Part shown: positions 1 through 63,938 of the stretch, piece by piece | How positions within the stretch are numbered: the stretch's first letter is position 1 | Layout of the letters: each line of letters opens with the position of its first letter | NCBI GenBank assembly: GCA_002633005.1 | Contig: NMRA01000124.1 | Location: forward strand, 124,001-188,000 | DNA: 64,000 bases | Reading direction: 5' to 3' | Source of the DNA: Phoronis australis | Taxonomy: Eukaryota; Animalia; Phoronida | Notes under the pieces: generated by a model | Databases searched by the model: none | The model's input: the letters and a program-made list of their open reading frames with translations, nothing else | Told to the model about the DNA's origin: nothing | Program-made: the position numbers and the translations under genes

Positions 1-1709
1 TGCAAGAGAAGACTTCAGAATGTTCCAGTGAATGTTAAAGTCATCATATTGAAAAGTTTGTTCGTGGTACAACACTTTAGCTGAGATACACTCTTAAAGC
101 GTATCATACCACAAAGACATAGAATACATTAAGCTTTTATGGTGAATTTGCAGAATTCTGTAAGAAATCACAGTTTTCCATGAGAAACAAATTGGATACT
201 GGACAACGTCAAACACTGAAAAAGTTTCGACCATTACATTAGGTCAAGATTTAGTTTTACTTGTGACGCAGGTTTGTTTGGTTGCCATGACTAGCCAACA
301 GGCGAAACTTAAGTGTCAGAATGTTGTTCAAAGAATGAAGCCGATAATACTGCATTATAATAAAACTTAGGTCACAATGCCATCCTGGAGTTAAATCTAA
401 CACGCGCTCACATATTTGAAAAGCTTCCTCACGAATGGACAGCAGTTCGAAGCCATCATCAGAAATTTGTAACATGTCCAACAGCTTGGAATTATTGAGG
501 TCATGGGAGATAACTGCAAAATTTGAAGATGCACTAGTGCATACAATTGCTAAGGGTTGCAAAGTACTTTTAAGGGTTATTGGTGACAATTCTCTAGCTG
601 TTCCCATGCAGTTTGAAGTTCGTCACATTCAAGTCTAAGTAACCAATCACCCAAATCTCCTAAACTAGAGAAACATAGTCGATCTATATGTAGCCTGTAT
701 CCAGACAATGAACATTGGTGACCAGCTGTGTGTTGGTGGCAAATTGAGGTCATTCAAAGCAAATGTAAAGGGCTACAGTGTGTAATATCATTGAATTGAG
801 TAGAGAACAGCAATTAGGCCCAATAAGCTCACATTAAGTTCTGATACAAAGCGGCTAGGAACAATAACATCATTTTTTCTGGCATAAGTTCAACAATGCT
901 ATTCTATTGTGACCCAAAAATAATATTTAGTAGCCCAATAATTCTGGCATGAAGACAATGAAAGTCGACACAATTTGACAATAAAGCTCTGTCAAAATCT
1001 GTCCAGTTTATTTTGAGAACTTCGTCAGTTGAATATGATTCTGTGCTCATCAAGGTCTTGAAAGACACGCAGATTTGCCGCATGACAATTGACCTTGCCA
1101 AAAAGATTAGCCTATATTTGAAATGAAGCCTCAGTGAGGTTGACAAATCACGCTTCACTATACCTACACAAAATTTGCAGCACTGACAAAACCGATTCCA
1201 TGACTCTCAGTAAGATACCTGTACAGGCATTTAGACCTGGCAACAGTAGGTGTCTAGACTTGTCAAAAAAGATTGAGTGTGGTAGTCCTACAGCATTTCT
1301 GGCTCAATAATTTGATTCTCAAAAGTGTGTTTGTATCTAGGTTTAAGTTGATCTATTTCATCCTGCATTCATTATTTTGCTTCAGGAGGGATACCACTTC
1401 CAGATTTATGATTTCAACAACAAATTCAAAATTATACCCGGAAACCCTTCTTTAGGTCATGCAGTTGTAATTGGGTATCATGAGGTGTGTCAATTTTGCC
1501 TCTTTTCTGAGGACATTGTCACAACAAAACATAACAATTGTGATTGTAAAAACTTTGTGCACTTACTTCAACTACACAATGTAAATTTAGAATACCATTA
1601 AAATTGGCTTCCTCAACTCCGTTCCAATGGCCTTCAAAGGGATACAAGGATGAAGTTATCAGTGTGAAAGTCGGCTTAAAAACGTTCCGCAACCCTACTC
1701 CAGTATTAC

Positions 1710-1849
1710 CTCTATGAAGATGGGTGATGATGGGTTCTTCTTGTAAAAGATGGCTTTCGTCCCCCACTGGGGGTCAACACTGCCTTTCACCACAGGTGTC
1801 CTCACAGACTCCTTCTCACAACGCATGATCACAAACGGGTCAGTTGTTC
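1710..1849 (-). CDS. CAPN5: Calpain exon, C2 domain ([46 protein letters not shown])
   Basis: ttcag acceptor, gtaata donor, 140 nt; C2-type DPF/YVI...P.W...IFY pattern of CAPN5/6. Confidence 0.9.
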
Positions 1850-4800
1850 CTGAATTTGTAAAGAGATACGGACAAAATTACGGAAAACACAAAATACTTC
1901 AGCTGAAAATATGACAAATTTCCCCAACGCTCCGTATCTGTCAACTGAGCCCTTAGGAGAAATAATTCTGTGAGCTTATGGGCAAATTACCGAGTAGTAA
2001 ATTAATATGACAAATTTAATATTCACTTGGTAAGTATGAAGGGATTTTCCCACAGAGATTAGAGTTAATTTTGGTTCATCTGAAAGTGACTGAATTTGCC
2101 AAAATTTCAGATTTCTGGCAGATAATGATTTTTTGTCAAGACCATACAATATTTATACCAATAAGATGCTTATACCATACTTTTACAATCACATGAAATT
2201 GAAGAAGACGGAAACTGAGATTTTTCGACTATTACTTGTTCTAGAGATCACTTGCAGCCATATTGGATTTTTCAGACTAGCACTTTTCTCACAAGATGAC
2301 CTGGACACAGCCTTTACAAACACTGAAAATTGGACCTTATGCAAGACGAGAGCAAATGCAGATGTTTCCGTGTATTTTTATCAAGTCATACCGATGTATA
2401 CAATATTACCTTTAACTTTCTTTTCTAGTGAGGTACCCTTTACAGCAGTTACCACGGCAACCAAAGAAGGGGGTTTGCCCAGGCAGGCCAATAGGGGCTG
2501 TTTGGGACATTCTGCAGTCAATTCCCTGGAAATGATTTAACGCTACATTGAATGCAATTTTGAGAAGTTACAATGCCAGAACATATTACCGACAATCATG
2601 CACTCGATACAATATAACACACCTTGTTTCTCAGTGGTTATCAGAAAAAATAGAATTATTCACATCTTTGATGACACAGCTCTTACACAAAGTTGTGGAA
2701 TTGCCTGACAGTTTAATAGGATGACTCACATCCCAAAAAGTGGACCAGTAAAAGGATGCTGCTATTGGTGCAAAGAATGCATGCGTGACACACATCTGGA
2801 GTCTGAAAAACTGTTACGATGCAAGTAAAAGGTGCACAGGGGGTCGTTCGCGTGCTAACTCATATGTAGTGCCAGTCCACAAGTGATCTACGTCACTTGT
2901 GCTGTACTACTAGCAAAGGGCAACCACATCCCGAACATTTCAACGGAATACTTTACTCTACATTTCATGATATTAATTTTAGGACACTCACTTTGCATTC
3001 AGTTTATCATTGGAGTACATTCTCAGAAGGAAACCTCCGTCACAAGATGGCATAAGAGTAGAGGGGATGACAACATAGCGACCTTTTGGCAGGTCAGTGT
3101 TGAGAAAGGCACTTCGTCTCTGTCTAAAGGGGGATTTGTCCACGAGGTTATCCACCCTATGCACACGGTACTGCCGATTTTCCTCAACCTAGAAAAAAAT
3201 ACAAAAGGTAAATAGAAAGTATTTAGAGAAAGAGCAGAGTCAGACTGACATTGCTATTACCGCTAATAGTACAGCCTATTCTCTTAACATCAGCTGATGT
3301 TCACAAATGCATTTTTTCAAAGTAGTATATTTTATTGGTTTTGCACCAAATGATCATTGAAACAGTACGATTGATTCCAAAATCTAATCCACCAGTTCCT
3401 GTCCAAGTAGCATTCCTGAACATCACCTAAATTTCTCCATTAAGTTTTTCACTAAAACCGCTCACACACACAAATGGACCAAATACATAGTACTATTTTT
3501 TTCTGAAATCATATACTTGGAATCTTGAAAATAATTAATTAATTAATTTATGATTAAGTAGCATTACTGTTCTTGAGTAAACTTCACAAGACACTGTGTT
3601 TCGCTGCAACCTTACGTTAGATTGGAATAGTTTAGAGTTCTATCGAATTACTAAAAATTGTCAACTTTAAGGTAGGTGGATACACAAAAAAAATTAATTT
3701 TGACTGTTTTTTACATTTTCATATCATCCTAATCTTTAATTCTTGATGCACAGTATACTGAAGAAAAATAAAATCATTCTGAAAATCCAAAGTTGTTTTT
3801 TTAGCTATATTTGACCAAGCCTCAGTATGTCATATGGCTTGAGTGCTCACCAGCTCAGTGATTGACAACTGGGGCGGAGCTTATATACAAGGACACTAGC
3901 TCTAATCTAACCCTGTCAACAAGCATTGCGTAACCNACAAATTTAAAAACCAACCCAAAGCATATAGTTGTGCCGGTTTCTTTATTTTGCACACATCTAT
4001 ACTTTGCCCAGTTTTCTGTTGTGAAAGTGGTATCACGCTGATCATAGAATTTCTCTCTAGGTTTGGTTGGCTCATGTTATAAACCAAACTTGTCTGATTG
4101 TAGTGAAACAATGTATCTATCTATTGCTTCTGTTATTGTACAAACATGCAAAATTTGTTTCTGAAGCATCAGAATAGGTTCAGAAATAATATAGTTACAA
4201 CTTGTGCTAGCTTTAAACCAGAGTTTCCTGCATGCAGTCCAAAGCACATGACTCACAAGCAATGACTCGAGCCTGCTACCCAACCATAATTAATATGACG
4301 TGAGTGGAATCATTAGATGACAGCCTCGTGTAATCTGTCTGGTGATGTTTGACGCTCACTTTGAGTTTCAATATTTCTCTTAATGAACATTGATCACAAT
4401 TTGTATTTTTTGTTACATTGAAGTACCATGGTTCAACATAATCATAATTCACACCTGGGGATTTTCTAGAAATGTCTCGTGGTTCGAGTTCCCTCCAGCA
4501 CGAGCCTTGTCAGAACCTCGTGGTCCACTCGTCCATTTTCCTTTGAACATGGCTTCATTCCAAGTCTTTTTAAGACTGAACAACGACGTATTCATAAAGT
4601 AAATGATGTCAAGCCTGTTGAAGTGATTAAGGAAGTCGGCATAGGACACCCTGGAAAACAAACACTTAAAATATGATGAGCCAATTAACAATACCATATA
4701 TAATCAAAAGATTTTTGCAGTCCTATTGCTAAGTTGCAATCATGCAGTGGACATTTCAGTTTTTTTCTCAAACAGCCCACTAATCATGACCAGTTCCCAC

Positions 4801-7800
4801 TAATCAATACCACATTCCAGAAAACAAACAGTTCATTAACTGAAAATCAAAACCGCTGCCCAAGACCCACTGAAACGATCCTGGTATTTTTTTTAGGCAA
4901 ATTTTCACCAGGAAAATTTTTTGCATGGGGACGCAATTTGTTGGGATTTTGAGTTCCACCAAATTTCACAGGATTATGTACTGAAAATTTCTTTATGAGG
5001 TGACAGAAGTAACATTGTTTACTTGATTAAATCTCATACCCCGCATGCTCTCACAAATGGCAGTATTACAGTTTGTACTTTGACACTTTATTCAATTAAC
5101 CAAGTGATGTTATCAGTCTCACAGATGTTTTCCAAGGCCCGTCAATAGGGGGCCACAGAACTTGCCGTGATTCTCAATTGCATTGGAACACAAGATTAGC
5201 AGAAATAATTTCTATAAAAGATCCTACAAAATTTCTGTGGTTCTGACATACCTGACAATAACTACTGTGTTTCAATAACACCCATTCACATGTTCCATAT
5301 GGTAATTAAGACAGATTCCAACCACTAGCAAGCTTCAAATTACAGGGGTTTATGATTCCGTAGAGACTGAAGCAGATCATGTCTCATAATAATTTGCAGC
5401 AACAGAGGCAAAAACTAATGGGCACGGTGAAGACTAAGCAAAATTTGTGAATTTGGGGATGGAATTGTAAAATTTGCTTTTTTTTTTCTGGAACTGAACA
5501 ATACGAGTATCCTTTGTGTTATCGAACATACATCAAGAGGTAATAATTGGAAGCCAAACACGCAAATCCAATTTAAAAAGTGAAAATTCTGATTATAACC
5601 AAGCAGTTACATTTGCTGGATAACTCAATGTGTGCCTAACAAACAATCATTGAATACTTCTAGGTTTAAAGCCGACAGGGGTAAAACTTCATCGCTTGAA
5701 AACAATCTGACTGAGAATCTAGCGAAAATGTGGTCACCCCATAATGTATGCAGTGCCAAGTATTCTCCCGAGACAACTCCGCTAATATGCAATAACCCAG
5801 GTGGGGTCAACCTCAGCTAGCACATGCACTTCAGTCATGCAGCCTGATCCCTCAAAGGGATAGAGGAATTGAGTATCCCCTTCGATATTACTAAGCCGGA
5901 AAACTTGACATATCTGATGTTTACTACATGTTGTTGAACGAGTCACAACATCTTGATTTAGACAGAGGTTGCAAAACTCAAAGTGGTTCTTTTTGTCTCA
6001 CGAGAAAACTTAGCTGTGGCGTTTGCACTTTCAACAATAAGTTGTTTCCAATCTCACCAGAACTCTGCCTCCTTGGTGAAGTTTAACCCCAAGCTGTTTC
6101 TCTCATCGGGAGTTAGGCTCTTCCATTCATCGGAGCTGCATAAACAAAGTCAGTAATCATCACTGTTTCTTATGAAAGTAATTCACTAAAATCCATAGAA
6201 TTTCATTCAATGTTTCTATTTAATCACTAAAAAGTGGATATGATGTTCCCCTGTTACTTTTCTTTTAAAAGGCACCATTGATTAAACAGTTAGTTTTAAA
6301 AGGCTGTGTTACAATACAGCCCTTTTTAATTGGCTTACCGTATTCGCCGTAATAACCGCCCATGACCCTATAAGCGCCCCCCACGCGCTTTCAGACTTTG
6401 CTGAAATAAGCGCCCAGTCCATGAACGTGTACATGCGAACAATGACATACCTACAGTCCTACAACTCAGCTACAGTAACATCTTCAATTTATCAAAAAAT
6501 TTTTGCCCTTGTCTTCTAGACCATCAGCGGCACTGCTACATTTTTATTTAGCCATGACTTTACACTTCAAAGTAACGCAGCGCTCCAAAAAGAACGCAAC
6601 AGTGTTGCTACGCTCTCGCGATGACCGTGTCCCACTATGATCTGACCTTTCAGTACAGACACATCGACTGTCTCATGAATAAAAATAACTTGGTGTTAAA
6701 CGCACGTGGCCAGGAAGCGCGCTACATACATGAACCTGTCATCAAAGACATTAGTCGGGAACTATCCATTCATGAAACGGGTAGCATAGCATCGGCAAGA
6801 AATGAATATTGGCACTAATTTCCGACAATTTCAAATACTATAAAACATGTTTGAGTTATTTTTGAGATGGATTGTTTGATTAACCATAATTGGTGTTTTT
6901 AAGCCGAATATCCGATAAAATGACAACTGACAGTGAATGCTTACACACCCTTACACCGAAAAATAACTGCCAGATAGTTACGTACTACGCATCCAGCTAC
7001 ACGGCGACTATAATATGGGCCTTACCGAGACAAATGTCCAAAGTTTTTAGCACAAGACCGGCAAGTGCTGAATGAAACACGCTCTGGTTTAGGCCTACTG
7101 CTTGTGCAAATTTCTTTACACATCTAGCTAGTTAGATTGCGTGGCTCTCGCCAAAAGACGGTCTCTGCTTTGGCAAATGAACTCTGGTGACACGCACGTG
7201 CTCGCTTACTCGCAGACGAACTTCAAAACAAATGTCACGTGACAACAACATGTGTATTCATCCAGACATTTTTCTCGCTGTGTTGCCAATCATACATGTA
7301 GATGGCACGATGTTGCACAGATTTGTACTTACACCTGCCGTTAATCCAGACTCCACGGGAACTTAAAAAATCTTAGAGACGCTACTTATAAAACTTAATG
7401 AGGATTTCAGGTAATTTGCTTGAGTCGAAACTATTTTATTCAAGCACTGAAGTCGCCATACCGTAGACGGTGATTTCGAGGCAGTCAGTCCGCGAGTTTT
7501 GGCCCAGCACAATTTTCTGTAAAATTATCGTAATTTAGCAGCAAAGTTTGATAGCAATGCACAACAGTTTTGTTGCAAGTCTTTCATAGATTACATATAC
7601 GTCACAGAGCATAAATTTGATGAATCTTTGCTTCCGATTTCACCCGTTTCGGAAACCGGGTTTCAACCACCTTGTGTTATAATAAGCGCCACCCCTGAAC
7701 CCAACTTTTCTAAGCGCCCTGGGCGGTTAATACAGCGAATACGGTAATCACAAACAAAATCATAAACACCAAAAACATGAATTCAGAGGTTCAAGGAACA

Positions 7801-10800
7801 AGTTAATGAAAAATTTTTACACTTCAAAAGGTTACAAAATGCCAAGAGGCATGTTGAAGATAATTACAATTCACAGAAATGTTCCAAATAAACCATACAG
7901 ACAGCTATTTCAAAACTTGGAATTCTGCTAGTTTCAGGAGTTGATTTTATCTAACTTTTTAGATACATCATATTTTCTTCATGGCATCTAGGCCTAAAGC
8001 TTGGTTACTTATGCATCACTACAAGAGAAGTTATCAAGTGTCTCTCTTGTATGTCCACTACCAGATGGAGACCTGTTAGTGTGCCTGTCCATGGTGACGA
8101 TCACTTACTGGTCAGACCACGGCCCTTTCCATCCAGCTAAGCCCCACGGGTTCTGTAGTCTAAGCATCTTCAGCTGTTTACTTCCCACAGTACTCTGAAG
8201 TCCTTTGGGTATATCAATGCACCTGACTGCCGTGCCGCAATAACCGTATCCAAGCAGGAGTCCGTAGTCCTCTTCGTTACCAACATCATCTCGGTCACAC
8301 TGACACGATAGACGAATGTAAAAGAGTTACAGTGCTAAAAGACTATTTTGATTTAGACCACTTGCTGCTATAAAATTGATCTGAACTTGTTCCTGATACA
8401 AATGAGAAGTGGGTTCTGAGATTGGAAAGAACTGAGAGTCATTATTGAGTGAGACCATGCTCCACGCATTAAATGACACGTCGAGACAAGCCACCTTGCT
8501 AGGCCTGGTCTTACGAAATAAATGACTCAGTTATTTACAAACCAAAAACCACACATAATTTCACTAAGGACAGTTTGAGACCAATTTCATAATGACGAGT
8601 GGTCTCAATCAAAAGTTGTTATTTGTGACAGAAGGAAGGCCCACAACTGTCTTAAGCTAACAAACTAACAAAAAACAATTACTGAACAGACCAAAATGAG
8701 TATAATCAATGAACGCTACAGAAAAGAGATGCTTTCTTCACATTTTCATCTATTCTCAACCATGCAATGCTTTAATAATCACATTAGTCTTGGTACTTGC
8801 CCAATCGAGGTTGTTTTAACAAAAACACCTAATTATTGGCCACAGGTACGTCATGACAGATACACTTTTTGATAAGCTTGAGGAAATGATATTTAAAGCT
8901 GCATTCTGCCCTGTTAAACTAAAACAAAAACAAAAAAATCAAATTAGGCCTATTATTCTCATAAAATCTGTCTCATAAGTTTCCTCACTGTGATAGTTCT
9001 ATTTTGTTACTATTAAGAGCACCAAAATCATTTGCCACTCAAAAAAAAAACACTTCAGACTTTACTAGCGTCGGCTAACCCTAAAATTGTGAATTAAAAT
9101 ATGGCGCATGTACACATTGCTTATGACTTGAATTTGTGATGGAATGGGATCCTGTCACAGTAAGGAATATCATACAAGACCAAATTTAAGAGAGTAAAAG
9201 GCCCATTTCAATTTTTGTTTTTCAGCCAGTTAAACAGGGTGAAATGCAGCTTTAAAAAACTGTTTCGGTTCATGGTTAATCCGAGTACTATTCACCACCA
9301 GATTTGCCTCATTTTTTTCAGTCTACACTCTACATTGTTGCATTGTTTTGTGTGACCATTTATAACGACTCCAAGACAACGAAATGGGACACCAGAATTT
9401 CAAAATACGGGTTCACTGGACCCCAGCATTTGGAAGTGTAGGGCGAACAGTTAGTTTCCACATCAAGTGACCCTACCTCAATACTGCAGACAATCATCGA
9501 GTCATTTTCCTCTGCGTACTTCAGAAGACTGAACAAGGAGTTTTGCGCATTGTCGTCATCTTTGTCGAACTCCTCCAAAAACAACGTGTGGGACATACCC
9601 CCCGTGAAATCCACCAGCGCATCCGCTACATCAACGTAACTCAGGGACTCGTAATCTCCGAGAGCTCTAAAAAATATATAATGAATTGAAACGAGATCAA
9701 TGAGTAAATGTATAGCAGAAAGCCAACATGAGCATGGAGAAGAAAAGTCATGTCTTCCAAAATCCCTAAATGCACTGTTGCTCTGCTTGAACTTTTTTAG
9801 CATAGAATATTTCACAACAGACAAAATCTGTTCTTCCTGAATGTCATCATTAAAATCTAGATCAAAAATTCAATTTGTTCCAAATTGTTTTCAAACTCCG
9901 TTTTTTATATCCCGTTCCCTTTATTTTAGGTGACGTTCATCACTATTGTTAAAACAAAATCATTAAACAATTTTCAACAACCTTTTTCAGACTTCTTTGA
10001 TTTTCTTTTTACAAATTCCCACCAGAACCTCGATGAAACTGCCCATTAAATAGGACACAGTTTTGTCATTTCTTTTGAAAATCGGTACATAAAACAAGCC
10101 ACATCAATTCTTAAAATGAAAGTCAACAACTTTTCTTAACAAAAAATACTAACTTTGCATACGCTTTTTCCAACAGAGCACTCCAGAACTCGTTCCTATC
10201 CGCTGCATGGCAGAACAACAGTTTGTTGTCTTTCGTTGGCAGTTGGTCGTCAATGACAACATCCAACCAGTCTCCATGACGCCAAAACTGAAAATGAAAG
10301 ATCCCCTGGTGCTGTTGTTCAGGCATCCACTCTTGCTCCTTGCATTTTGGCACAACCTGCAACAATGACAGCTGTACTACAAAGTTTTCAAACAATGAAA
10401 TGAAATTGTCTTCTTGTTTAATCCCATTGAAAATTTTGAGAAAACATAACTGTACTGGTCCGCCATATTGCGTACTAATTTGAATAAAGCTTACCATGAG
10501 ACTTCAAATTTGAAAGGGTTTTTTGCGAGAAAGGCAATTGTGAAATGCAAAGTCCGCAACGCATGCACACACACAGGCAACACTAAACTGTCGATGCCCT
10601 TCCCAAGGCATTCGACAACTCCCTGTATGGAGAAAACAAGCTTTTATCCTCTAACCAAATTTTTAGTTTAATGTCCATCTTGTTTCCCACATTTAGAACT
10701 TGAAGGTTGTGCAATTTACAGGCCTGTAGAAACCCGAGGCTCCATATTTTGTCAACTAAAATTGAACTCTGTAACAATAATAAAAAAACAAATTTGCCAT

Positions 10801-13800
10801 TACCATTTAAATAACACAGCACAGAAGGATTCCTGTTATAATCATAATACAATTGGACGAGATAAATCCAGTTTTAAAAAAATGAAACAGAATGAATAAG
10901 ATTTTTTGAAGTTAAAGTAAAGGAATCTTGTCGGAGATCATACTGGGGTAACAAACCAGTGCCTTCTCTCACAAAATTCACTGTTGATTTTGGCCACTGA
11001 CTGTTAAAAAGTACTCAAATCAGAAATAACATATCAGGCTGAGAAGAACGGACAGGTTAACATGGCTTCAGAGCAGACTCATATATGTCGCATGTCTAGG
11101 TATGTTATAGTTTCTGTTGTGAATACAGTTAGCAGTCTGGGGAATTCTAGGTGATCTATGGTAACTGTGAACCTTGCTTACCAGGTTGTAGTATGTGCAA
11201 ATATCTTCTGTTAGCTATAACCCCTACAAAATAACATTTTCTGAAAGAAAGGTGAATAAATCTCCTAACAAAATTGATTATTCTTATTTAATAATCTTTA
11301 TTTATTTTTTCATGAGATATGCGTGTTTCAGTAATTTTTTTTGCCTTTGAACAGAGAATTTGAAAGGATTGCTCCTCCAATTACTTTGGACTTTTGTCAA
11401 CAAGTTGATAACAGCATTTGGAGGGAACTGTGTCTCCGATTTTAGAAATAGGCCCTAGTTTTTAATTATCCACTATTTACAGCATTTTGAGCAAGAATAG
11501 CCGTACTCTTGATTTTTGAAAGCTTCGTTAGGAAAACTAGGGCCTATTTCAAAAATCTAAGACACGGTTCCCTCAAAAATGCGGTTATTAAAAGGTTATC
11601 TCCCATCTTATTTAGTGGCGTCCATTCTAACTCTATATCAATAAACTGAGCTTTGTCAACTAGTAAAAGTATATATTTTCTGAAAGAACAAAGACCAGGA
11701 AATATAAATATACTTTTTGTATTCATGTGCCATTATTATTTTTACATAAAAACCTTTTAAGTCAAAATTTCATTTTTAAGAAAGGTACATTCATAGCAAA
11801 ATAACCCCTAGGTCAATTTTAATGAAACCTTTTTTTAAATGAAAACTTCACCAGTTACCTCAAAAAAGCTTTTAGGAATTTTCAATTAGTTTGTTCGTTT
11901 GGATTTTATGACGAATCAACTCGCAAAACGTAAGGCATTTTTGTATTCGTCTTTGTCACATTACGCAAAAACTAGGTCTTTATATCAAAAATCGTAAAAG
12001 CGTTTTTGAGACTGATGACTAAATATTAAGTTTGGAAAGTTTCAGCAAAATGCATCCAGCCGTTTTTGAGAACTAGTGTTCCTAAGTTCAAATAAAATTG
12101 ATTTCCCGAAGCCGACAAAAGGCCGATTAAACTGGGACAAGTGAAAGTCTCGAAGTCTTCGGTTCATTATTCGGTGAAAATTTGTTTTCCTTACACATAA
12201 CCTTTTCAATCCTTAACTATGTTAGCTATTTCAACGTTCACTAGCAATGTCAACTGATTTTGCAGTGCGTAACTAACTTAATTATCATTAAAATCTCAAA
12301 TAGACGTATTGTATTTCCCAGCTAACTTTTACTGTTGTTTACGCCCTAGTTTCTAAGTAGGTCACAGTTCATAGCCTGTACACGTGCTGGGAGACTGATA
12401 AAAAACCAAGTGAGAAATGGATTACAAAAATCGAATCGGTGATTAAAGTATGTCGTTCGCATGAGATCGAAACATCAAAACGTCAACTTATTAATTGAAT
12501 AAAGGAATTAGGGTGAGGATTTATCTCTTTTCACAACTTTCTGTGTTCATGACCACAGAGACCTGAGGTGACTCGTAGCATTCGTTTTCAATGCCAACAG
12601 TCGTATGCATGTAGACGCAAAACTACCTTAGTATCAAAACTACGTTTTGTCTTCGTTTTCCCCACACCATTCTATCATAAGTACACCTCGTTGGCTAAAT
12701 ATTATTGGCAGGCAACTTTGTGAATGAAAGGACTGAGGCTTTACGAAGCTGTTCTGTACCTGGTGGTAGATTCGATTTAATTGAAAGCCCTTTAACCTTT
12801 GACCTTGGATAAGTTGTGAACAAATATCCATGCGGTTGTTCAGTTCCAATGTGATTCTGCTAAACCTTATTTTTCTCGCTACGTGATATATATTTTGCAT
12901 TTGAAGTTTCCCGAGAATGAACATAAGGTATTTTGCTAGACATAAGTGAAATATTGTAAAAATGGCCAATTTTTGTGAATAAGGTTGCAGATAACCTTAA
13001 CATGTTGACAAATAACCAATATAATTGGAGGAACAATGTTTTAAAAATCTTTGTTCAAAGTCAAAAACATACTAAAAATGCATATCTCGTGAAAAAATAA
13101 AGACAAATAAGAATAATAAATTTTGTTAGGAAATTTACCCACCTTTCAGAAAATATATTCTATGTTGGGTTAGAGCTAATTTAAGATATTTTCACATCAA
13201 TACAACCTGGTAAACAAGGTTCACAGTTACCTTAATGAAACAAATTTCAATTCAAACAAATGTCGGTAAGAATGCAGTGACATTGCTTTTTAAGCCAAGA
13301 GCAAATACGCCTGTGAAAAAAACTGCCTTTTAAACACTCGTGATTGTAGTAGATTATACCCCAAATGATCATAATTTAAGATAAAAAAACATGACAATCA
13401 CCAATGAATCCAAGCTACCAGAAGTATACGCGCAGACCAAAACTGGTCAAGATACCTACCCCAAGTATGTAGTTATTTAGTAGGGTAACTCTATCTTGTG
13501 TGGTTTATAATCCTCAATCAGAACACAGACGAGCATGAGGCAACTCGTACGGTAGCATTTGGCCTTCTGTCACCCCAACGCTATGAGCGCACCTAAGCCA
13601 AGGTGTGACTAACCCTTCCTTTCATAAAAGTCAATTAATGTGTGAAGCTCAGATGTGCAGCTGAAGTAAACCTGCCCCCTAATTTCTCTAATAATTTGCA
13701 CAGATTTCAAAAATTAATATTATTTATTTTTTATTTTTCAATTTTTTATGACGGTCATTTGTCTTTATTTGTTTTTTTTGGCTTTGAAACTTGTATGGTA

Positions 13801-16800
13801 AAAAGGGTGTTGGTAAGGACAACAACTGTCTCATCCAATACACATTAGGCCAAGTCCATGAATAGGGACTTAAAGCTCAGTTAAATCTGATAAGGGTGAA
13901 AGATGCATGCATTCTCCTCCACTTGCCTGCAAATAGTGTTAGTGTAAAAGTTGCCTAATGGGGGCCATTTTGTGAAATAAACTAAGAAAATAAACTTATC
14001 ATTCTTGAAACTTGTCGAACTCAACTCATTAGTGCCCAACACTTCAACAACTTAAGAGAATCAAACAATCTATTTTGCAAATGAGGAGAGTTCAATTCGG
14101 GGTAGGACTATCACATCGTTGAGCAGTTTTCCAGAGTTTTATAACTTTCAAAAATGGAACAAAAATACATCTATACAAAATTTTAATTCATTTTTATAAA
14201 ATGTGTTTGTGTCCCGTGTAGATTTAAAACTAGAAAGATGTAGCTAAGTCACTCTTTAAAAACATTTGTAAATTGTTTATTGAGTTAAAATATTATTTAA
14301 TACTCAGTAACTAGAAAAGACTAACAGTACAAATTGAGAAATTCTGTAATTCTCAAGTTCATGAAAGACTACTATGACTAATAGCATAACAAGAGCAAAG
14401 CAGTGTTGATATATACCCACATTGTGCATTACAAACAGTGCAAATACAAGAGATGGTCATTATTTTGAACATTCTCACTAAAGGGAGCAATGCTAGTAAA
14501 CCTTAATACCGTAGTCTGTGTGGGATGCAAAGGATGTCAGATATGCTCTTCTCAATAGGAACACACTTGTCACCTTTCATAGTGATTCTACAAGATGTGT
14601 GGAGGATAGGGAGACAGATGACAAAGGACACAAAAAATAGAAACGTCATGCGACAGTAACTTAATTGCCAAACTTCATGAAGAACCATCAAAGGACTTGA
14701 TAGATATCGAGGCAAACGCAAAGAAAAACAAAATTGTCAACACTGCAGTGGCAGTCCCTGATCTCTCCACATGCCAAATGTCATGCAGATCTAGCCATCA
14801 AAGAACCTGTATTGACTCGAAAACAGTAAAAATGGCTATTAGGTAGCACAGAATATGTCGAATCCATCTGAAAATGAGAAAACGGTGCCTTCTAAATAGA
14901 TACCTATTTACTAGAATCCATAAAAATCCATCAAGGAACTCCAAAGATACTCAGGCAAACACAAAAAAATGAAAGCATTCGGAGGAGGGACACTTGGCGA
15001 AATTGACTGAACAGACGACACTGGAGATGATGCTGACAATGTTGATGTTGGTGAACGTGATAACAATCATATGATGAATGAAAATGTCAGAAATGAGTAA
15101 GAAATAGAGTCTAGTGCAATGGAAGGTACCAAAAAGTGCAGGAAAATCAGTCAACAAAGGAACAGCGTCATCAGAAAATCACAAATAATTCCAAAACGGG
15201 ATGTCCTGCGAAAAATGGAAAACATTTTCTGAAAGCCCAATCAAAATTCTATCTAACAGAGTAGTTTCACAGAATTACACAAATTTTCGAAAATTTTCAA
15301 ATTTTGCATTTTTTTGAAATTGGAAGTCAAATACCTCAAAAATGGTAAGTCTGAGGAAAATTGTTACAGTTCATTTGAAAGAATGCACATGTAAATATTA
15401 ATGTCATTTGCTCTTCCTGTTCAAAATGGCACCCCAGCACAATTGAAATGCGTCAGATCCACCATCTTGAAAACAATTTCTGGTTTTAAACGCAGCACAC
15501 GATAATAGCTACTGACAGGATACTAAAACATGAAAAGTGGAGAAGCAATTGATCCCACGATGTGCCTTCTACAGGACCAAATGTTTTTGTCCCGAAATCA
15601 AGGTGCTCAAACGCAATAGTCGATATTTCCCCCATCTTTAGCTGGAAATGAATGATTTACGACATATATGTAGTACCTGTCTGGTACAATAGATTTTCAG
15701 TCGTGTACGTCAAAAATTGCAGCCTCTATGATCATATGAATCTGAATTCGAAAAAAATGGTCACCATGTTCGCCATCTTGAATCTAATCATAATGAAAAA
15801 CAATAGGAATCCAGTTCTTATGGAACTAGTATGAATTTCGTGCAAATCGGACTAAAAGATTGTGAACAAACAAAAAAGAAACTAACTTAGTGTCAGAGCA
15901 ACATACTTGGAGAGAAATTTCCTCAAGTAATTATTACTCGGGGGCACAAGGGTAATCAGATCCATCTAAAAATTCGCTAATACCACCCCATCCATGAACA
16001 TGTCGGTAAAATTTCATGAACATGGAGATACGGCAGAAGATGCCGCACAGACAGACAGGCACGACAGCATAATGCACCCACATATGCTGTCATCCCCATC
16101 CATGGGTGCATTAGTACACTGTGTCAACATCTAGTGTGCTGTTAAAATCAAATATTTATCCTAGTAGGTTACTATTAAATCCAAGTGTTGTAACACCAAA
16201 TAAAGAGAATGTGAACAGAGTACCATAGTTCTATTTGTACAAGACATCAAATCAATGACAAAGAACACATACTTTAAGGAATGGCCAGTAAACCTATACA
16301 AAAACACATAATTTATCGATAAATCAAAGGCGGAACAAAGAAGCTTTAGTTGATCACCAAGAGACACATAAACAACAGGGAAAAAAGATCGGGTGAACTT
16401 TGATTTGAAATGTTCAGTGAGAAGCAAGGAATAAAAGGGGATTATTGACAACAACTCATGCTTGACAACATAAGGCGGGAAGGTGGTACTGTTAGGTACG
16501 CAATAAAATGACATGATGGAGCAATTAACAGCAACAGTCATGCAGTTATAATTGATGTGATATATTTTTATTTTCTTTGTATTTTTTAGTTCTAATGTGC
16601 AACTGTAGTTAATAGATTTGCCTACATCATATGTGGAAAACTAAACACCTAGGGTACTTCAGTTTTCAAAAAAATTGAATAATGTGAAAATTTATCTGTT
16701 TTTGTCAAAGTTATACAAACACAAAAAGAAGCCACACAAAAAGCATTAAATTGTTCAAAACAAGAATTTTTGTTTCAAACTTCTACCGAACTCCAACAAT

Positions 16801-19160
16801 AAGAAATTTTGTCAACTTTTTTCAATGCAGGTCACATTTTCCTAAGCCAACAAGCAGAAAATTACAGGAACGAAACCACAGCATTTTCTTTGTTGCATCA
16901 CATTTTCCGGATCTTTCAAAAATTTGAAATCTGATTGAATTTTCACAGCAATTGCCAACATCAATTCAACACCAATATAACACACAGAAAGCCATACAGC
17001 ATATTTCATTTCTAACTCACCCTACTGAAGAGTTTAGGATTACTGATAATGCTGGAACATGCTGTGACGAACCAGGCATTACCATACTCCCCTTGGTGAA
17101 GGTCATCTGAGGTCACGCCCTCAACGATCAGCCGCGGTACCTTACATAGCTCCTGAAAAATTAATTAACATACACATCAGAATAAGACATATGACAACTG
17201 AGAGTTCAGAATGCATTTATTAATAGTTTTATAGGAATCCAACAATCGGTCGTGGACAACAATTGACCGCAGCAATAAAACTGGAAACGGACAAACTTTT
17301 AATTTTGATCGCTTACTGTTATAAATCTGACCTTGACTTGTTACTTACTCTAATTAGAGGTGAAAGCGATTGGTAGGCATTGGAACAAGTGGCAGTTAGA
17401 TATTCTGTCACTTCATCCAAGAGCAGACGTAGTGTGTAACTGAATAAAGTACAACATGTGACCACTTTTATAATAGTAAGTGATTTTGACAGAGGGAGGG
17501 TTTATGGTACGTTCAACATATTTTTCTAGCAGGTACAAACAAAAACTGAGAAAAAAGTCAATTATTAGACAGAGCCAGTAAAACCCTTGAAACACAAAGA
17601 CTGAGATAAGTAAAGACAAGTCAAATTGCGTGGCACTAGTGAAATATCATATCACACATATTTGGTTAACAGGACCGCCACCCCTAAGGGGACTAGAATG
17701 TACATTTTGTTGGTTGTGTGCAGCTGGAATACCCACTCATTCACAAAGTCACTCAAAAATGGACCCAATTTTTGGGAAGCTCCATAATGAAGTCACCTTG
17801 GGGTTTTGTTCCAAAAACACCTCTTTTGCATTTCCATAACACCATAGCAACCCTTTTGTAGATATTCTTAAACAGCTCATGCAGCCCCACACAGCACAAG
17901 AAGAGACGACGTGGTATAAACAAGTACCGTACATCTTTTTCAATTAGAAAGCACCGTCTTGTTTTAGTTGGAAAAAGAGCTTTGAACCTTTTGTAATGAG
18001 TTCAATTGGAAATATAACAGAAACTTCATCAGAAAAGGGACCCTTTCTCAGGGCAACTGGATGTGGAAAAGTCACTCTCTGCGTGGCACGTGCCGTATAC
18101 CTCTGTAATGGGAGTACCCTCCCGTGAACCACTTCATACCGTCAGAGGTCCTATAGTCGTGAGTGCCCTAAAGTCGTGAACAATCTTATTTCCTCTTCTG
18201 CGCAGTCCCGCGACATCTGGCATTGAAGTTTCCAGCGTTCGTCTGCTTACAAACGTCAAACAAATACCCGGACATGTTGGTATTCACAATATGATAACAA
18301 ACAGTGACTGAGTGGCTTCTTTTTTTCAAATGTATCTTAAAAACAGCATATCACACTAATCCACTTTTTGTGCATTTTTGGGATATATATTTTCAAAAAT
18401 ATTCATCATTTAGGTTTACTCAAACACACGCTCCAGGGGTAACTTGAACAATGTATCAAAATGTCCCAGGGTGCATCAACTTTTGTAAGGCCAAAGCAAT
18501 AAAATACAGAGAGATACTTGATGCTGGGTTCTTAGAGTTTTACGTGAACATTCAGCCTCATTGAAAATGTCTGTGCACATCAAAGTTGGGTGCAAAACAT
18601 ATAACAATTCATTTCAATTGAAACTGAATTAATAAACAATGCAATGTGTTTTTATGTCGTCTAGAATATAAGCACTGTAGTTGACCCGTGTGGTCTTACT
18701 TCGTGCATTTCCGTCTAAACGAAACGGTCACGACTTTAGGGCCTCATTCAAAATGGCCGGCAATATCAGCAACCGCTTCAAAACTCTGCTTACAGAGACA
18801 AACAAGGATTAAGATTGTCAAAACATGTATATTTGTGAAGGCTGATATATGTCCATGACATCACATGAGCAGTTGCTAACGGATATTGGGTAATATGACA
18901 ATCAGCTGCTTATTATGCTTATATTCACGACTTAAGGTCACCAGTGTGTATAACCGATATTGACATTTACTTGGGAGTACTAAGCAGTCACTTACAGCAG
19001 GTCTTTTCCATTCTATATCCTCGTCTACTTTGCTGTGGAAGACAGATTTGTTAGTCGATGGAAACTCTAAGTCTGTGAAAATACTCCCACTCTTAGCAAG
19101 GACCTTCTTTATCTCTGCATATTTTTGCCCCTTGATAGTTTTAATTGATGCGGCACTCAT
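1710..19160 (-). CDS. CAPN5: Calpain-5/6-like (TRA-3 class) gene, spliced, predicted catalytically inactive; 3' end not found (probably outside window)
   Basis: Ten exons (19160-18996, 17152-17021, 10356-10154, 9666-9477, 8299-8109, 6135-6058, 4650-4455, 3188-2992, 2525-2410, 1849-1710) join in frame via GT-AG (1608 nt, no stops). Motifs [55 protein letters not shown] and C2 IFYKK resemble CAPN5/6. Symbol denotes family resemblance only. Confidence 0.93.
2410..2525 (-). CDS. CAPN5: Calpain exon, linker and start of C2 ([38 protein letters not shown])
   Basis: ttccag acceptor, gtaata donor, 116 nt; phase 2-1 bridges both neighbours exactly. Confidence 0.85.
2992..3188 (-). CDS. CAPN5: Calpain exon, C2L second half ([10 protein letters not shown]...[24 protein letters not shown]...)
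   Basis: ttttctag acceptor, gtgagt donor, 197 nt; VEENRQYR and GRYVxIPxT...FLLR motifs. Confidence 0.93.
4455..4650 (-). CDS. CAPN5: Calpain coding exon 7 ([10 protein letters not shown]...[13 protein letters not shown]...[16 protein letters not shown])
   Basis: ttttccag acceptor, gtgtga donor, 196 nt; end of CysPc and start of C2L (TFxxNPQ). Confidence 0.92.
6058..6135 (-). CDS. CAPN5: Calpain coding exon 6 ([26 protein letters not shown])
   Basis: tgcag acceptor, gtgaga donor, 78 nt phase 2-2; SxEW...EFW motif. Confidence 0.9.
6338..7744. mobile_element. Non-autonomous Tc1/mariner-pogo-like DNA transposon (~1.4 kb)
   Basis: TA|ccgtattcgccgtaataaccgccca ... tgggcggttaatacagcgaatacgg|TA inverted termini; repeated subterminal taagcgcc motifs; no transposase ORF. 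Confidence 0.85.
8109..8299 (-). CDS. CAPN5: Calpain coding exon 5 ([26 protein letters not shown]...[19 protein letters not shown]), His and Asn positions
   Basis: gtcag acceptor, gtaagt donor, 191 nt; RLxNPWG and WxGPWSD motifs. Confidence 0.93.
8897..9251. mobile_element. TTAA-flanked MITE (Kolobok-like); related copies near 34322-34652, 35600-35945 and 51490-51720
   Basis: TTAA|agctgcattctgccctgtt ... aacagggtgaaatgcagct|TTAA; shared internal motifs (ctcataaaat, aaccctaaaatt, tacacattg). Confidence 0.75.
9477..9666 (-). CDS. CAPN5: Calpain coding exon 4 ([23 protein letters not shown]...MIVCSIE)
   Basis: ttttag acceptor, gtaggg donor, 190 nt, phase 2-0. Confidence 0.93.
10154..10356 (-). 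CDS. CAPN5: Calpain coding exon 3 ([10 protein letters not shown]...[24 protein letters not shown]...[13 protein letters not shown])
   Basis: tgcag acceptor, gttagt donor, 203 nt; hallmark calpain motifs. Confidence 0.95.
11160..13231. mobile_element. ~2.07-kb non-autonomous DNA transposon with ~230-bp imperfect TIRs (Kolobok-like)
   Basis: ggtaactgtgaaccttgcttaccaggttgta... is mirrored by ...tacaacctggtaaacaaggttcacagttacc|TTAA; left TSD degenerate (ctat); no coding ORF. Confidence 0.8.
14389..16112 (-). mobile_element. Helentron-associated element family A (HINE/DINE-1-like) with a family-B element nested at ~14970-15932
   Basis: Read on minus: 5' atgcaccca...tgggtgcat hairpin plus (tgtc)n at ~16110-16045; ~150-bp internal units; 3' gtggg...ttgctcttgt at 14420-14389. 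Confidence 0.65.
17021..17152 (-). CDS. CAPN5: Calpain coding exon 2 ([44 protein letters not shown]), contains catalytic-Cys position
   Basis: tttttcag acceptor, gtgagt donor, 132 nt phase 0-0; not in the ORF track; matches calpain QGxxGxCWF region with Cys replaced by Ala. Confidence 0.93.
18139..18742. mobile_element. Truncated pogo-like DNA transposon fragment
   Basis: TA|ccgtcagaggtcctatagtcgtgagtgccctaaagtcgtga left end; inverted tcacgactttagggc near 18728-18742; right TIR not seen. Confidence 0.45.
18996..19160 (-). CDS. CAPN5: Calpain coding exon 1 ([19 protein letters not shown]...FTDLEFP...WKRPA)
   Basis: ATG at 19160, 14 nt after acceptor ttcag (exon starts 19174); donor gtaagt after 18996; 165 nt, phase 0. 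Confidence 0.92.
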
Positions 19161-20708
19161 GTTCTTTTTTTTTCCTGAAATTGAAGTCACATTGATTTTT
19201 GAGTTTAACTACATCTTGAGGAGCTGTTTCACAGGAACTAATATTGCTGATACCTGTATAAAGCACGCACGCCTCATAACAAATTTAGGCACGCAGTATA
19301 AGTCATCAGCAGTAATTTGAAATCTACTTTTTCAAGCTATTCGCCCAAGTCAGCTAATTAAATGGTACTTAAAACGAGCTGATTGATTTGAAAAATTCAC
19401 CAGTTAACCTGTCACTGCAAGTATGGTCTAAATATCAGTAAATGTGAATTGTTTTCAAAACTGAGGGTGGAAATAGCGACAAATATTCACAAACAAGCAC
19501 ACACACGGGAAACTCGGTTGATTTGGGAATTTAGTGATACAATACATACAAGCTCATATTCAAAAACTGCTCATATGGGGATCAACTGCTTAGAAGTATT
19601 GTAACGTGTAAGTTTTAGGAAAACAATTTCTGAAATCCTTTCACCAGCATCAAGTAACTTGTGAATTGTCTATTTTCAACGCATGAATGTATAATCCTCA
19701 AAAATTAAAAAACTTTAAAAGTCACACAATGGTTTATTATCACTTGACTGACATTTTTATGACTATGGTCATTTTTTATTTGAACGTGAATTTTCAAAAA
19801 CTTAAACCATATGGGCGACTTCATGTTTGGACTATGTTTTTACTGCATGGCAAAGCAAAAGTTTTTAAAGTCAATAATCTACTGATGTTTTCAGAGATGA
19901 TCATAATTTTCATATAAGAGAAATTTCTATTCATTTAATCTAGGTCATTTGCAGAACAGTTTAAGAGTCATACACTAATGTAAATACAGATAATTGATTC
20001 TTTCAAGTGACTTGAGTACAATGTGAATATCGTATGTAATTCAAAGAAGCCTAAGTCAATTAGGGCATGATCATGCCTTTCATTGGCAGGAACTTAGTGT
20101 AACAATTAAATTCATTTGAAGCTTCTGTCTGACAAAGGAACAATTTTGAAATGTAGCATGTGTAAAAACAGACACACAAGAGATAGCAATTGAATCATGA
20201 TGACCTTTATATGAATTTTGAATGCATATTTATTTAAAAGCATTGAGCATCAGAGCAATAAACTTTCAGATTGAGCTAAAGGACACTAAGAGTTCTTTGG
20301 ACATCAGAAGTGAATACTCGATCCTGTGATGTTTTCCTTACTAGACGTGGACATGTCTGACAAATTCACAACACAACGTGTAGGCCTCATCATTACCTCT
20401 TATTCATGAACATTATGACATAAGAACAAATCTATGACTGCTACTTTAAAACCCGTGACCGCTTTTCCCATTTTGTGTTCAAGTATAATAATGAATGGAA
20501 ACTTTTCGTCCAGTCTTACTTAAGAGGAGATAGGTACTTAACGATTGCAAATATGATAAGTGGCGATGACCTCGAGCTCATCTTGTCAGTCAACACTAAC
20601 AGCGCGACAACCAAGAAATTGGCGACAACGATTTGCCAGGTTGTTTAATATGTGAATGAAATATTTGTTGTTCGAATTATCAAGCTGAAACCATTTAAAA
20701 ATACTCAC

Positions 20709-43760: not shown

Positions 43761-44060
43761 GTTTGAGCAGGACAGTAAGCGAAATCATGGTTTGCTGTTT
43801 TACTTGGCATTTTATAATGAAATGCATAGATTTAATCTGTTGTTGTTACTGCTGCGAGTCGCCCCCAACTTCCAGCCAATCAGAATGACTGAATTTTCAT
43901 TTGCTTGCCAAAGCAGACCATTTTACTCAATCCTCCTTGGTACTGTGAAATAGTGTAGGAAAAAAGATAATGTCTAAAATTGGAGTAAAAATGATGGTCA
44001 GTTTTTTGCCACTGGTTTGCTGAATAGCAATTGGAATTAAAATGTACCCGTACTTTCCAG

Positions 44061-44302
44061 CGTCCTGGAGTTGCGAAAAGAAAAGTCGCGAGATGCGGCA
44101 CGTTCACGACGTGGAAAGGAAAACTATGAATTCTATGAACTGGCCAAGATGTTGCCACTGCCTGGAGCAATCACGAGCCAGCTAGACAAGGCATCCGTAG
44201 TCCGACTGACTATCAGCTATCTGAAGCTGAGAGACTTCAGTAGCCATGGCGACCCACCATGGAATAGAGACGAGCCTCATCCCTCAAACAAGCCAATCAA
44301 AG
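44061..44302 (+). CDS. NPAS3: NPAS/trh bHLH exon ([17 protein letters not shown]...GDPPWNR...PIK)
   Basis: tttccag acceptor, gtgaga donor, 242 nt phase 2-1. Confidence 0.96.
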
Positions 44303-47300
44303 GTGAGAATTGTGTGCCCACTAATTCTGAAACTTTTTCTCAAGTAACCACAATACACTCTGTTGGGTGGCAGACGTTTAAGTGATGGATGCAGAAGATA
44401 CAAGACCAAATATTTTGGTTTTGTAGAAAGTGTTAAAAATGGTGCAGTTAACATAAAGATTGATGGAAGCATGAAGCTAGTATTGTACCCCATGTTTAGT
44501 CCTGTTGAAAGAGGGCTTAAAACAACTTATTTTCACATGTGACCAAAGTATGCCAAAAATATTCACTATCCTCCTGTCTAGCCCAAGGGATTTCCAAAAA
44601 TTCCAGCTGTAAAGGCAAACTGTTTTTGAGATTTTTGTTTGGAATCTTAATGACGAAGATGAAGTTAGATTGTTTCTTATGAGCCTGCATGGCGGTAGAT
44701 TTGTTGGCTTTAAAATCAGGGGTCATTATTCATTATGTGCAGAGTATTCAGACCAGGATTCACAGCAAGCAAAAATATTTATTTTTCTCCTTAGTCTGAA
44801 TTGCGATCCCAAATTTATATCAAAATGGTGAACATGTGACTCAAAAGTCTACCAGGAAATTAAAAAGTGGTGCCTGTGTCGGCAACACTTTCCTATCCTA
44901 ATTATATGGACTACTGCCTTGGGTGGAACATCTGCTGTTTAGGCCAGATGACCACTCTGAGAAATGGCAGTCGAATGCGAATAAAGACATTATGTGTAAT
45001 GCTCTCCACTAATCTGTGTGTCATTTGGCTCAATGATTTATCATCCTCTCTACACCCACAGGTGGTCTCCACGGGATCAGTCAAGGATTGATGATGCATC
45101 CATTTGAAACACAGCAAGGTGCTCATATACTGCAGGTGATGTAAATAAATCACTTTATTTTTTAAAACATTTAATGAACATATGGTGTGATGGCAATACA
45201 AAATTCTGCATAGTTATTACTGTAATTCTCCTCTTATTTCGCACACTTGCTTCATTTCGCACAATCAAAATTTTTTAAGAAATAATGTTTTGTCCCTCAT
45301 CTATTTCGCACTAGGCTACTTGGTAGAAATTTATTGCCTGATCTAATTTGCACACAGATTTATCTGTGCTTCAAAAAATATCAAGAAAAGCTCTGTCATT
45401 AATTCTAGCCATACACACCCCTTTAACATTGTATATTCACGACTTAACTTGTCCATCATATGGGATTTCTCATGTTGATGAAGGAAACAATGATGGGGTA
45501 AAGTACCTTTATGTTAAAACAGCGTAAAATAACTAAATTACTGTGAATTGGATAATATTGGGACATCTAGGCCACGTTTTGTTCAATTCTCACTCAGTCA
45601 GTTGGTGATGCTTGATTGCTCAGTTAATTTGACACACCCATCAAATATCGAGTTTGTATATTCAGCTTATTTGGCATACCTCGGCTGTCAGGAAAATGTA
45701 TTTAATTCATTTTGTGTATAATATTTGGAGAATTACCATTCTAATGTACAGCACTCACATAATATCATTCTATTAATTGAGAAAAATCTACTGTTATTTG
45801 CATACTTTGGAGATGATTGTTATGATATTAATCACATCTTAACCCTGGCCCAATACTTTATGTACAGCTGTTCCATGGCCACATAAATTCATGTACTTAG
45901 GAGAATTAAAAAATGTCATTGATATTGTCAAGAGAATTGAGTTAATCCAAACTAGGAAGTGTGAATGTGAGAGTGGATGTTTTTCCTTTTACTTGTGCTG
46001 TTAATTTCTTTTATTTTAGATAAATTATTTTAAAAAATACAACTTTAGCAAAAAAATCCTCTCCAAAGGCACAGACATCTTTCCCTTTAGGTTAGCGAGG
46101 GCCCTGTGACTATCACTAAATTGGTAATGCTAACAGAAGCAATAAAACTTGGTAGTTTAAAATGTAATGGTTCTTGGTACTAGCTGTAGTGTTACAATGA
46201 AAATCACAGCAAGTGTCCTTAGTCATTATTTTCTTACATCCACCTCAATCAAACATCAGTTAGCTGAAGTCAGGACACTTGAGATTTTCTGCTTCTAAAT
46301 AAAGTTCACGCTTCGTTAAGACATAACTTGTGATTAGAGGGTGTGAAGTATGGTGCTATGTTGTTTGTGAGTGCCGTAATTATTAAGTTTTTTTTTTGCT
46401 TCTTTGTGTGTGCACTCACTGGATGTTGCAATTCTTTTGTTATCGATTTGAAATTTACACACAACATACTAAGCTTATGAAAGAGCTCGAGGACTATTTT
46501 TTGGTTGAAATTAGACACACATGCTATGAACATTCCCACTAAATAAAATTGGTTCTAACCCCGGTGTTTAAGGTAAACGGCGGGGTATGGAAAATTGAAC
46601 TAGACCGTATTTATCCACCTTGGCTGAGACGCGCTCGGCTCATGCTCAAAGGGATGCCGCCAAGCTGCTCTATTCATCGAGTCACGAGCGAGGATAATTG
46701 ACTTCGCTCATGCGGATATGATCAGCTGATTACAGTCTAGCCTAACAANNNNNNNNNNNNNNNNNNNNNNNNNNNNNNNNNNNNNNNNNNNNNNNNNNNN
46801 NNNNNNNNNNNNNNNNNNNNNNNNNNNNNNNNNNNNNNNNNNNNNNNNNNNNNNNNNNNNNNNNNNNNNNNNNNNNNNNNNNNNNNNNNNNNNNNNNNNN
46901 NNNNNNNNNNNNNNNNNNNNNNNNNNNNNNNNNNNNNNNNNNNNNNNNNNNNNNNNNNNNNNNNNNNNNNNNNNNNNNNNNNNNNNNNNNNNNNNNNNNN
47001 NNNNNNNNNNNNNNNNNNNNNNNNNNNNNNNNNNNNNNNNNNNNNNNNNNNNNNNNNNNNNNNNNNNNNNNNNNNNNNNNNNNNNNNNNNNNNNNNNNNN
47101 NNNNNNNNNNNNNNNNNNNNNNNNNNNNNNNNNNNNNNNNNNNNNNNNNNNNNNNNNNNNNNNNNNNNNNNNNNNNNNNNNNNNNNNNNNNNNNNNNNNN
47201 NNNNNNNNNNNNNNNNNNNNNNNNNNNNNNNNNNNNNNNNNNNNNNNNNNNNNNNNNNNNNNNNNNNNNNNNNNNNNNNNNNNNNNNNNNNNNNNNNNNN

Positions 47301-63532: not shown

Positions 63533-63938
63533 ATTCCACCATAGAGATCCTATGGAAACAATCGATTCTTCAACTGCACTTGTGTTATGTTTCATGCGTT
63601 CATTCCACCATAGAGATCCTATGGAAACAATCGATTCTTCAACTGCACTCGTGTTATGTTTCATGCGTTCATTCCACCATAGAGATCCTATGGAAACAAT
63701 CGATTCTTCAACTGCACTCATGTTATGTTTCATGCGTTCATTCCACCATAGAGATCCTATGGAAACAATCGATTCTTCAACTGCACTCGTGCTATGTCTC
63801 ATGCGTTCATTCCACCATAGAGATCCTATGGAAACAATCGATTCTTCAACTGCACTCGTGCTATGTCTCATGCGTTCATTCCACCATCATCCTATGGAAA
63901 CAATAAATTCTTCAACTGCACTCGTGCTATGTCTCATG
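63533..63938. repeat. 69-bp tandem satellite, ~6 copies, each with a ccatag-agatc-ctatgg hairpin
   Basis: Units start at 63533, 63602, 63671, 63740, 63809 and 63878; near-identical. Confidence 0.95.

Follow-up and report, generated by a model that had tools for sequence, protein, structure and literature searches.

In a 64,000-nucleotide stretch of the Phoronis australis genome (contig NMRA01000124.1, positions 124,001 to 188,000; hereafter the window), a calpain gene carries alanine and tyrosine codons at two catalytic positions. We asked whether such a gene is decaying, is a private loss of proteolysis, or belongs to an older lineage with another use. Our reading, with a probability of roughly 0.7, is that it is a spliced and transcribed member of a second Tra-3/CAPN5 clade, named Tra-B here, whose protein is predicted not to cleave peptides and is likely a membrane-attached scaffold.

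The window sequence and RNA joints gave ten coding exons on the minus strand, which start with an ATG at 19160 and extend to 1710. Every intron is GT-AG, and the 536 codons (385+151) contain no stops or frameshifts. The features, with their support, are as follows.

18996..19174, minus strand: coding exon 1, with the ATG at 19160 and 14 bases of 5′ leader; RNA joint 17151-18995, loose read ends at 19174, weak Peptidase_C2 match
17021..17152, minus strand: coding exon 2, PC1 subdomain; Peptidase_C2 E 1.4e-08, best PDB match CAPN5 6P3Q, RNA joints
17095-17093, minus strand: Gln75 codon within exon 2, the kept oxyanion glutamine
17075..17077, minus strand: Ala81 codon GCC at the catalytic cysteine position; read from the window, 6P3Q alignment, multiple alignment
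10154..10356, minus strand: coding exon 3, PC1, with calcium-site-1 Glu155; Peptidase_C2 E 7.8e-25, RNA joints, alignments
9477..9666, minus strand: coding exon 4, protease core; RNA joints, Pfam match
8109..8299, minus strand: coding exon 5, PC2, with Tyr248, Asn280, Trp282, Gly286 and Asp293; RNA, Pfam, alignments
8246..8248, minus strand: Tyr248 codon TAC at the catalytic histidine position (CAPN5 His252); read from the window, alignments
8152-8150, minus strand: Asn280 codon AAC, the kept catalytic asparagine; read from the window
8132..8134, minus strand: Gly286 codon GGA, replacing the calcium-site-2 glutamate (CAPN5 Glu290, calpain-2 Glu292); alignment, ligand list of PMC4631099
6058..6135, minus strand: coding exon 6, end of the protease core; RNA joints
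4455..4650, minus strand: coding exon 7, start of domain III (CBSW); RNA joints, Pfam
3189..4454, minus strand: interval hiding an mRNA exon absent from the assembly, with a lone N at 3936; loose RNA read ends
2992..3188, minus strand: coding exon, end of domain III; Calpain_III E 2.4e-10, RNA joints
2410..2525, minus strand: coding exon, CBSW-C2 linker and start of C2, with two cysteines, one at 2485-2483; RNA joints, alignment
1710..1849, minus strand: coding exon, C2 domain; C2 E 2.7e-05, loose read ends at 1710, the mRNA going on outside the window

Eight of the ten exons have a Pfam match at E ≤0.1, six of them above the curated cut-off, and along the gene the matches follow the order Peptidase_C2, Calpain_III, C2, which is the Tra-3/CAPN5/6 layout. 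The CysPc protease core (PF00648) is present, with exons 2-5 passing the Pfam cut-off, and is followed by domain III (CBSW; PF01067) and a C-terminal C2 domain (PF00168) whose last exon lies outside the window. The gene is closer to CAPN5 than to classical calpains, 6P3Q being the top match for all three exons tested (2, 3 and 5). The initial annotation had described ten canonically spliced exons free of stops and frameshifts; this holds for the exons found, but the model is incomplete, with a domain-III exon missing from the assembly and more exons outside (beyond 1710, plus a non-coding exon upstream of 19174). Head to head with the calpain gene and about 25 kb from it is a bHLH-PAS transcription factor gene, with an exon at 44041-44310 on the plus strand (bHLH_HIF1A E 2.4e-22) that we take to resemble NPAS1/3/trachealess; the gene probably continues to 54799-55038 and beyond, and its region contains assembly gaps (runs of N) at 46749-47447 and 53186-53829. 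At 63532-63903 and 55299-55659, open frames translate into recurring peptides that reveal tandem repeats.

Three stranded raw-read RNA runs (X6, X7 and X8) and one contig set from the same species were mapped on positions 1-19600 of the window. Read strand agrees with a minus-strand gene, and eight of the nine junctions are spanned directly by RNA joints. Each of these has 228-375 reads in X6 and in X7, and 1-10 reads in X8 from similar sequence amounts; the RNA level of the gene is strongly sample-dependent. At the ninth junction reads exit at 4455 (386 and 326 reads) and return at 3190 (214 and 200 reads), and the sequence between these loose ends, translated by eye, resembles the domain-III stretch of the orthologues; one exon is therefore missing from the assembly. 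That the gene simply skips a domain-III exon was considered and rejected, as the RNA reads carry that exon. The single N at 3936 is probably a collapsed gap over this coding exon, and assembly-based gene models would be short by about 40 domain III residues, in frame. RNA-to-assembly differences fall in no exon among the 40 of 1260 rows listed, too few to confirm the Ala81 and Tyr248 codons, and the four DNA runs that contain 86-99% of the words of 8100-10400 come from one sample that may be the assembly source and are thus not independent. Intronic repeats at 6300-7850, 11100-13700, 14800-15000 and 18100-18900 attract RNA reads that match them at 88-95% identity, in most cases from both strands. 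At 14814-14874 several hundred one-strand, loose-ended reads occur in all three runs, and an abundant transcript from elsewhere may contain a copy of this segment.

HMMER alignments to human CAPN5 (6P3Q) place alanine on Cys81 and tyrosine on the catalytic histidine without gaps, and the multiple alignment gives the same placement (CAPN5 positions 75, 81, 252, 284 and 286). Both catalytic replacements proposed at the outset were thus borne out in the assembly sequence, as GCC at 17077-17075 on Cys81 and TAC at 8248-8246 (Tyr248) on His252, as was the retention of Gln75 and of the catalytic asparagine. The catalytic set of the window protein is Gln, Ala, Tyr, Asn in place of an intact Cys-His-Asn triad, with Trp282 kept. 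Calcium ligands were taken from the calpain-2 list of PMC4631099 and mapped through the 6P3Q alignment ranges. Site 1 is kept (Val65, Gly67, Asp72 and Glu155), and site 2 has lost its first glutamate, a third lesion beyond those of the initial annotation, while keeping Asp293 and Glu318; the two sites are thus not both complete. At the Gly286 column the glutamate is found in 42/42 other Tra rows and 32/40 Tra-B rows. This site-2 glutamate helps to shift a tryptophan out of the calpain cleft, and the calcium switch of the window protein core is probably weakened too. The calcium residue of the C2 domain (CAPN5 Asp589) maps to an exon outside the window.

We predict with high confidence that the window protein, a calpain shell with neither nucleophile nor general base, does not cut proteins; Cys81Ala is the laboratory dead mutant of CAPN5. 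C81A CAPN5 is inactive and yet S-acylated like the wild type, with linker Cys507/512 as the sites, and linker cysteines are likewise the S-acylation sites of CAPN6 (bioRxiv 10.1101/2022.01.25.477766). The CBSW-C2 linker of the window protein has two cysteines, one of them at a position where 97% of Tra-B rows have Cys. The earlier view that this Tra-3/CAPN5-type gene is intact and expressed, and that its product very likely has no proteolytic activity, is accordingly supported by spliced RNA, by the absence of stops and by the inactivity of C81A CAPN5.

A word-index protein search with exon 5, a short query, yielded no match. HMMER search with the same exon yielded 109 proteins, of which 91 have His in the His column, 15 have a different residue there and 3 have nothing aligned. 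When a full-length Solemya protein was used as query, and then a profile including the window exons, a distinct group ranked ahead of ordinary CAPN5 among the best 120 of ~7800 and ~7600. This group, our Tra-B, is from bivalves, gastropods, a chiton, Lingula, annelids and nemerteans; the named matches listed include no member outside Lophotrochozoa, which is weak evidence of absence. The window model was aligned with 84 proteins, most near-redundant vertebrate and crustacean rows having been left out. An IQ-TREE LG+G4 tree of 60 rows places the window protein inside Tra-B at 100/100, and Tra-B as sister (89/88) to an intact molluscan group, Tra-A. A site-heterogeneous LG+C20 PMSF tree of 39 rows, with six trait columns removed, again places it in Tra-B at 100/100, and gives vertebrate CAPN5/6 (eutherian CAPN6 not among the rows) as a clade of their own at 99/98 that excludes it. 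The calpain tree that had been called for to find orthologs has thus yielded an orthologous clade. The window protein also has the Tra-B residue at 18/21 clade-specific columns; its best overall identity is ~52%, with about 40-45% to active Tra proteins. Its membership of Tra-B is, we consider, practically certain.

Column counts were made over 40 Tra-B rows besides the window protein (5 of them placed by FastTree only) and 42 other Tra rows, with two distant calpains left out. In the other Tra rows (eutherian CAPN6 not among them) the Gln, Cys, His and Asn are each found in 42/42. In Tra-B the nucleophile column holds Thr in 15, Ser in 10, Cys in 6, Ala in 3, Gly in 2, Val in 2, Pro in 1 and Arg in 1; His is kept in 21/40, the oxyanion Gln in 19/40 and Asn in 39/40. 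An intact triad is absent from 35/40 Tra-B rows, 18/40 lacking both Cys and His, and is kept in the other 5 (Owenia, Lineus, Liolophura, Sinanodonta and Mactra), so that by sequence Tra-B is not uniformly dead. Mytilus, oysters and Lingula each show stable substitutions, and the residue at the His position varies among Haliotis species. In four molluscs an intact Tra-A occurs together with a Tra-B copy; the latter is without Cys or His in Mercenaria, Solemya and Mytilus galloprovincialis and has an intact triad in Mactra. Gigantopelta (P0119/P0139) and Babylonia (P0123/P0147) have two Tra-B copies each, both dead, and among nemerteans the Tubulanus protein P0142 has all four catalytic positions changed and Lineus keeps all four. 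An AlphaFold model of the Lingula orthologue (Val/Tyr), taken as a stand-in, has pLDDT 90 and superposes on 6P3Q at 1.6 Å over 338 columns. Of the 99 columns conserved at ≥90% in both groups the window protein keeps 93, and the relaxation is therefore aimed at the catalytic residues. Tra-B thus appears to be an ancient, mostly dead, lophotrochozoan second paralogue clade of Tra-3/CAPN5, whose ancestor may have been active.

These counts change what can be said of the origin of the lesions. The initial annotation had proposed an independent loss of proteolysis in the CAPN5/6 lineage, convergent with CAPN6. Separateness from eutherian CAPN6 holds, vertebrate CAPN5/6 forming its own clade, and the convergence holds at the level of the Tra-B clade, but neither can be read as the private loss of one gene, since most Tra-B proteins have no intact triad. 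The accompanying argument that Cys to Ala needs two base changes is weak, given Ser or Thr, each one base from Ala, at this site in 25/40 relatives. Closest to the earlier proposal is a history in which the Tra-B ancestor was active and catalysis was lost about ten separate times, the loss in the window lineage being an event of its own. The intact triads of an annelid, a nemertean, a chiton and two bivalves fit this history, as do the 10 triad losses counted on the 60-row tree when return is disallowed (6 changes when it is allowed). So does the instability of the grouping of the window protein with Lingula, whose support falls from 87/91 in the 60-row tree to 47/5 in the better LG+C20 PMSF model; the Tyr248 that they have in common may be parallel and not of one origin. 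Against it, a two-state model with regain beats irreversible loss for Cys (LR 9.3) and His (LR 8.0), with LR 0 for Gln, though this model cannot date the loss because the Cys rates saturate (55 and 11) and one rate regime is applied across lineages. Moreover no loss is seen outside Tra-B over 10.6 branch-length units (eutherian CAPN6 not sampled), versus 12.6 units inside, and relaxation is a property of the clade either way. We regard a separate loss in the window lineage as somewhat improbable, if still a serious contender.

A further conjecture, which we hold only tentatively and think doubtful, is that the site was switched off near the origin of Tra-B, then drifted among Ser, Thr, Ala, Gly, Val and Cys, and that a few members such as Mactra, nested among dead relatives, regained the full catalytic set and perhaps proteolysis. 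Tra-B itself would be more than 500 million years old under this conjecture, an age that comes from its spread over four phyla and the general knowledge of their divergence. If true, Tra-B is a natural series of the death and revival of one enzyme.

The window gene is very probably functional: it is intact, spliced, expressed and constrained, by the RNA, the stop-free frame and the conserved columns that are expected of a functional pseudo-calpain. For the clade to which we assign it, we propose with moderate confidence that an early lophotrochozoan duplication left Tra-A as the protease and Tra-B kept for binding. The C2 domain and S-acylated linker cysteines would target the Tra-B protein to membranes, and its protease-shaped core and domain III would there hold partners, probably cytoskeletal or signalling, as with CAPN6. 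By this analogy a membrane or cytoskeletal scaffold is a plausible specific job, for which we would give even odds.

The main alternative to a scaffold is that calpain substrates still dock in the inactive cleft and that the protein, as trap or competitor, protects the targets of active Tra-A. Ala at the nucleophile is a classic trapping change, Gln75, Asn280, Trp282 and calcium site 1 are kept, and active and dead paralogues occur side by side in several molluscs. However, a Tyr for His would alter the shape of the cleft, as would the Lys, Arg, Phe, Leu or Gln found there in relatives. The oxyanion Gln is missing from 21/40 Tra-B rows, and by the calpain mechanism the loss of the site-2 glutamate should hinder calcium-driven closing of the cleft. 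The range of bulky residues in the His column and the frequency with which Gln is lost thus argue against a trap, which seems unlikely. Far less probable is a decaying pseudogene, or assembly error at the two codons. The terminal branch of the window protein does exceed all others in Tra-B (0.96 in the LG+C20 PMSF tree, whose median is 0.36), which could mean partly relaxed selection; there is an assembly gap within the gene, and Ala81 and Tyr248 were read from the assembly. Yet the 536 codons are open, conserved columns are largely kept, and the same catalytic columns are altered in most orthologues. A lack of expression had been named, along with dN/dS near 1, as the sign of a young pseudogene, and hundreds of junction reads in X6 and X7 speak otherwise. 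Hydrolysis through another nucleophile, suggested by the Ser or Thr often found with kept His and Asn in Tra-B, is scarcely credible here, the window protein having Ala and no His and a C81S CAPN5 core being without activity (PMC7001764).

The scaffold-like Tra-B that we favor is present in published trees but, within the open-access literature searched, not recognised as a mostly dead clade; that search found no paper on a non-proteolytic lophotrochozoan Tra clade. Two Tra calpains each were reported for Aplysia, Lottia and oyster (AplTra1/2, LotTra1/2, CraTra), and the accessible sections of that report note catalytic loss for another calpain family and not for Tra (Hastings et al., 2017; PMC5650170). 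A supplementary alignment (Rawlings, 2015; PMC4631099) includes oyster K1QU26 with Thr at the nucleophile, a protein absent from the main text; a figure of the same paper may class it as a non-peptidase. K1QU26 clusters with a Tra-B protein; its entry (P0321) is a model of 1496 residues in which the calpain core occupies 911-1184, and separate genes may have been fused in it. Tra-B proteins are labelled 'calpain-5-like' in databases (oysters, mussels, abalone, snails, Lingula), and expression studies may mistake a dead paralogue for a protease.

Non-proteolytic calpains are common, and one more is unsurprising; the clade is the useful part. Surveys count at least one replaced triad residue in 337/3795 (PMC4631099) and 344/1234 (PMC3315469) homologues, and dead calpains are frequent in protists too (PMC3563603). 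These share with the window protein the replacement of triad residues but belong to other subfamilies and domain layouts. The graded states of the Tra-B active site, from Q-C-H-N to E-G-R-Y, could be used to study the non-cutting roles of calpains and the possible return of activity in a pseudoenzyme. Active calpain-5/TRA-3 has the same domains and, as 6P3Q, is the best solved match for exons 2, 3 and 5, whereas the window protein lacks the equivalents of Cys81, His252 and Glu290 and is not an orthologue of the active molluscan Tra-A. Nor is it an orthologue of vertebrate CAPN6, as it groups outside the vertebrate CAPN5/6 clade. Eutherian CAPN6 (calpamodulin) is nevertheless a close parallel, with the same CysPc-CBSW-C2 layout and with Cys81 replaced in a gene kept as functional; it regulates microtubules and actin via a small G-protein (PMC3731218). 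Microtubule binding has been shown for CAPN6, and the window protein is known here from sequence and RNA. CAPN6 arose separately, carries Lys81 and has lost activity in placental mammals only; the window protein has Ala and the further change of His to Tyr, in a clade over four phyla. Tra-B is thus an independent and much older parallel to CAPN6, of the same domain layout and in tractable animals such as Aplysia and oysters.
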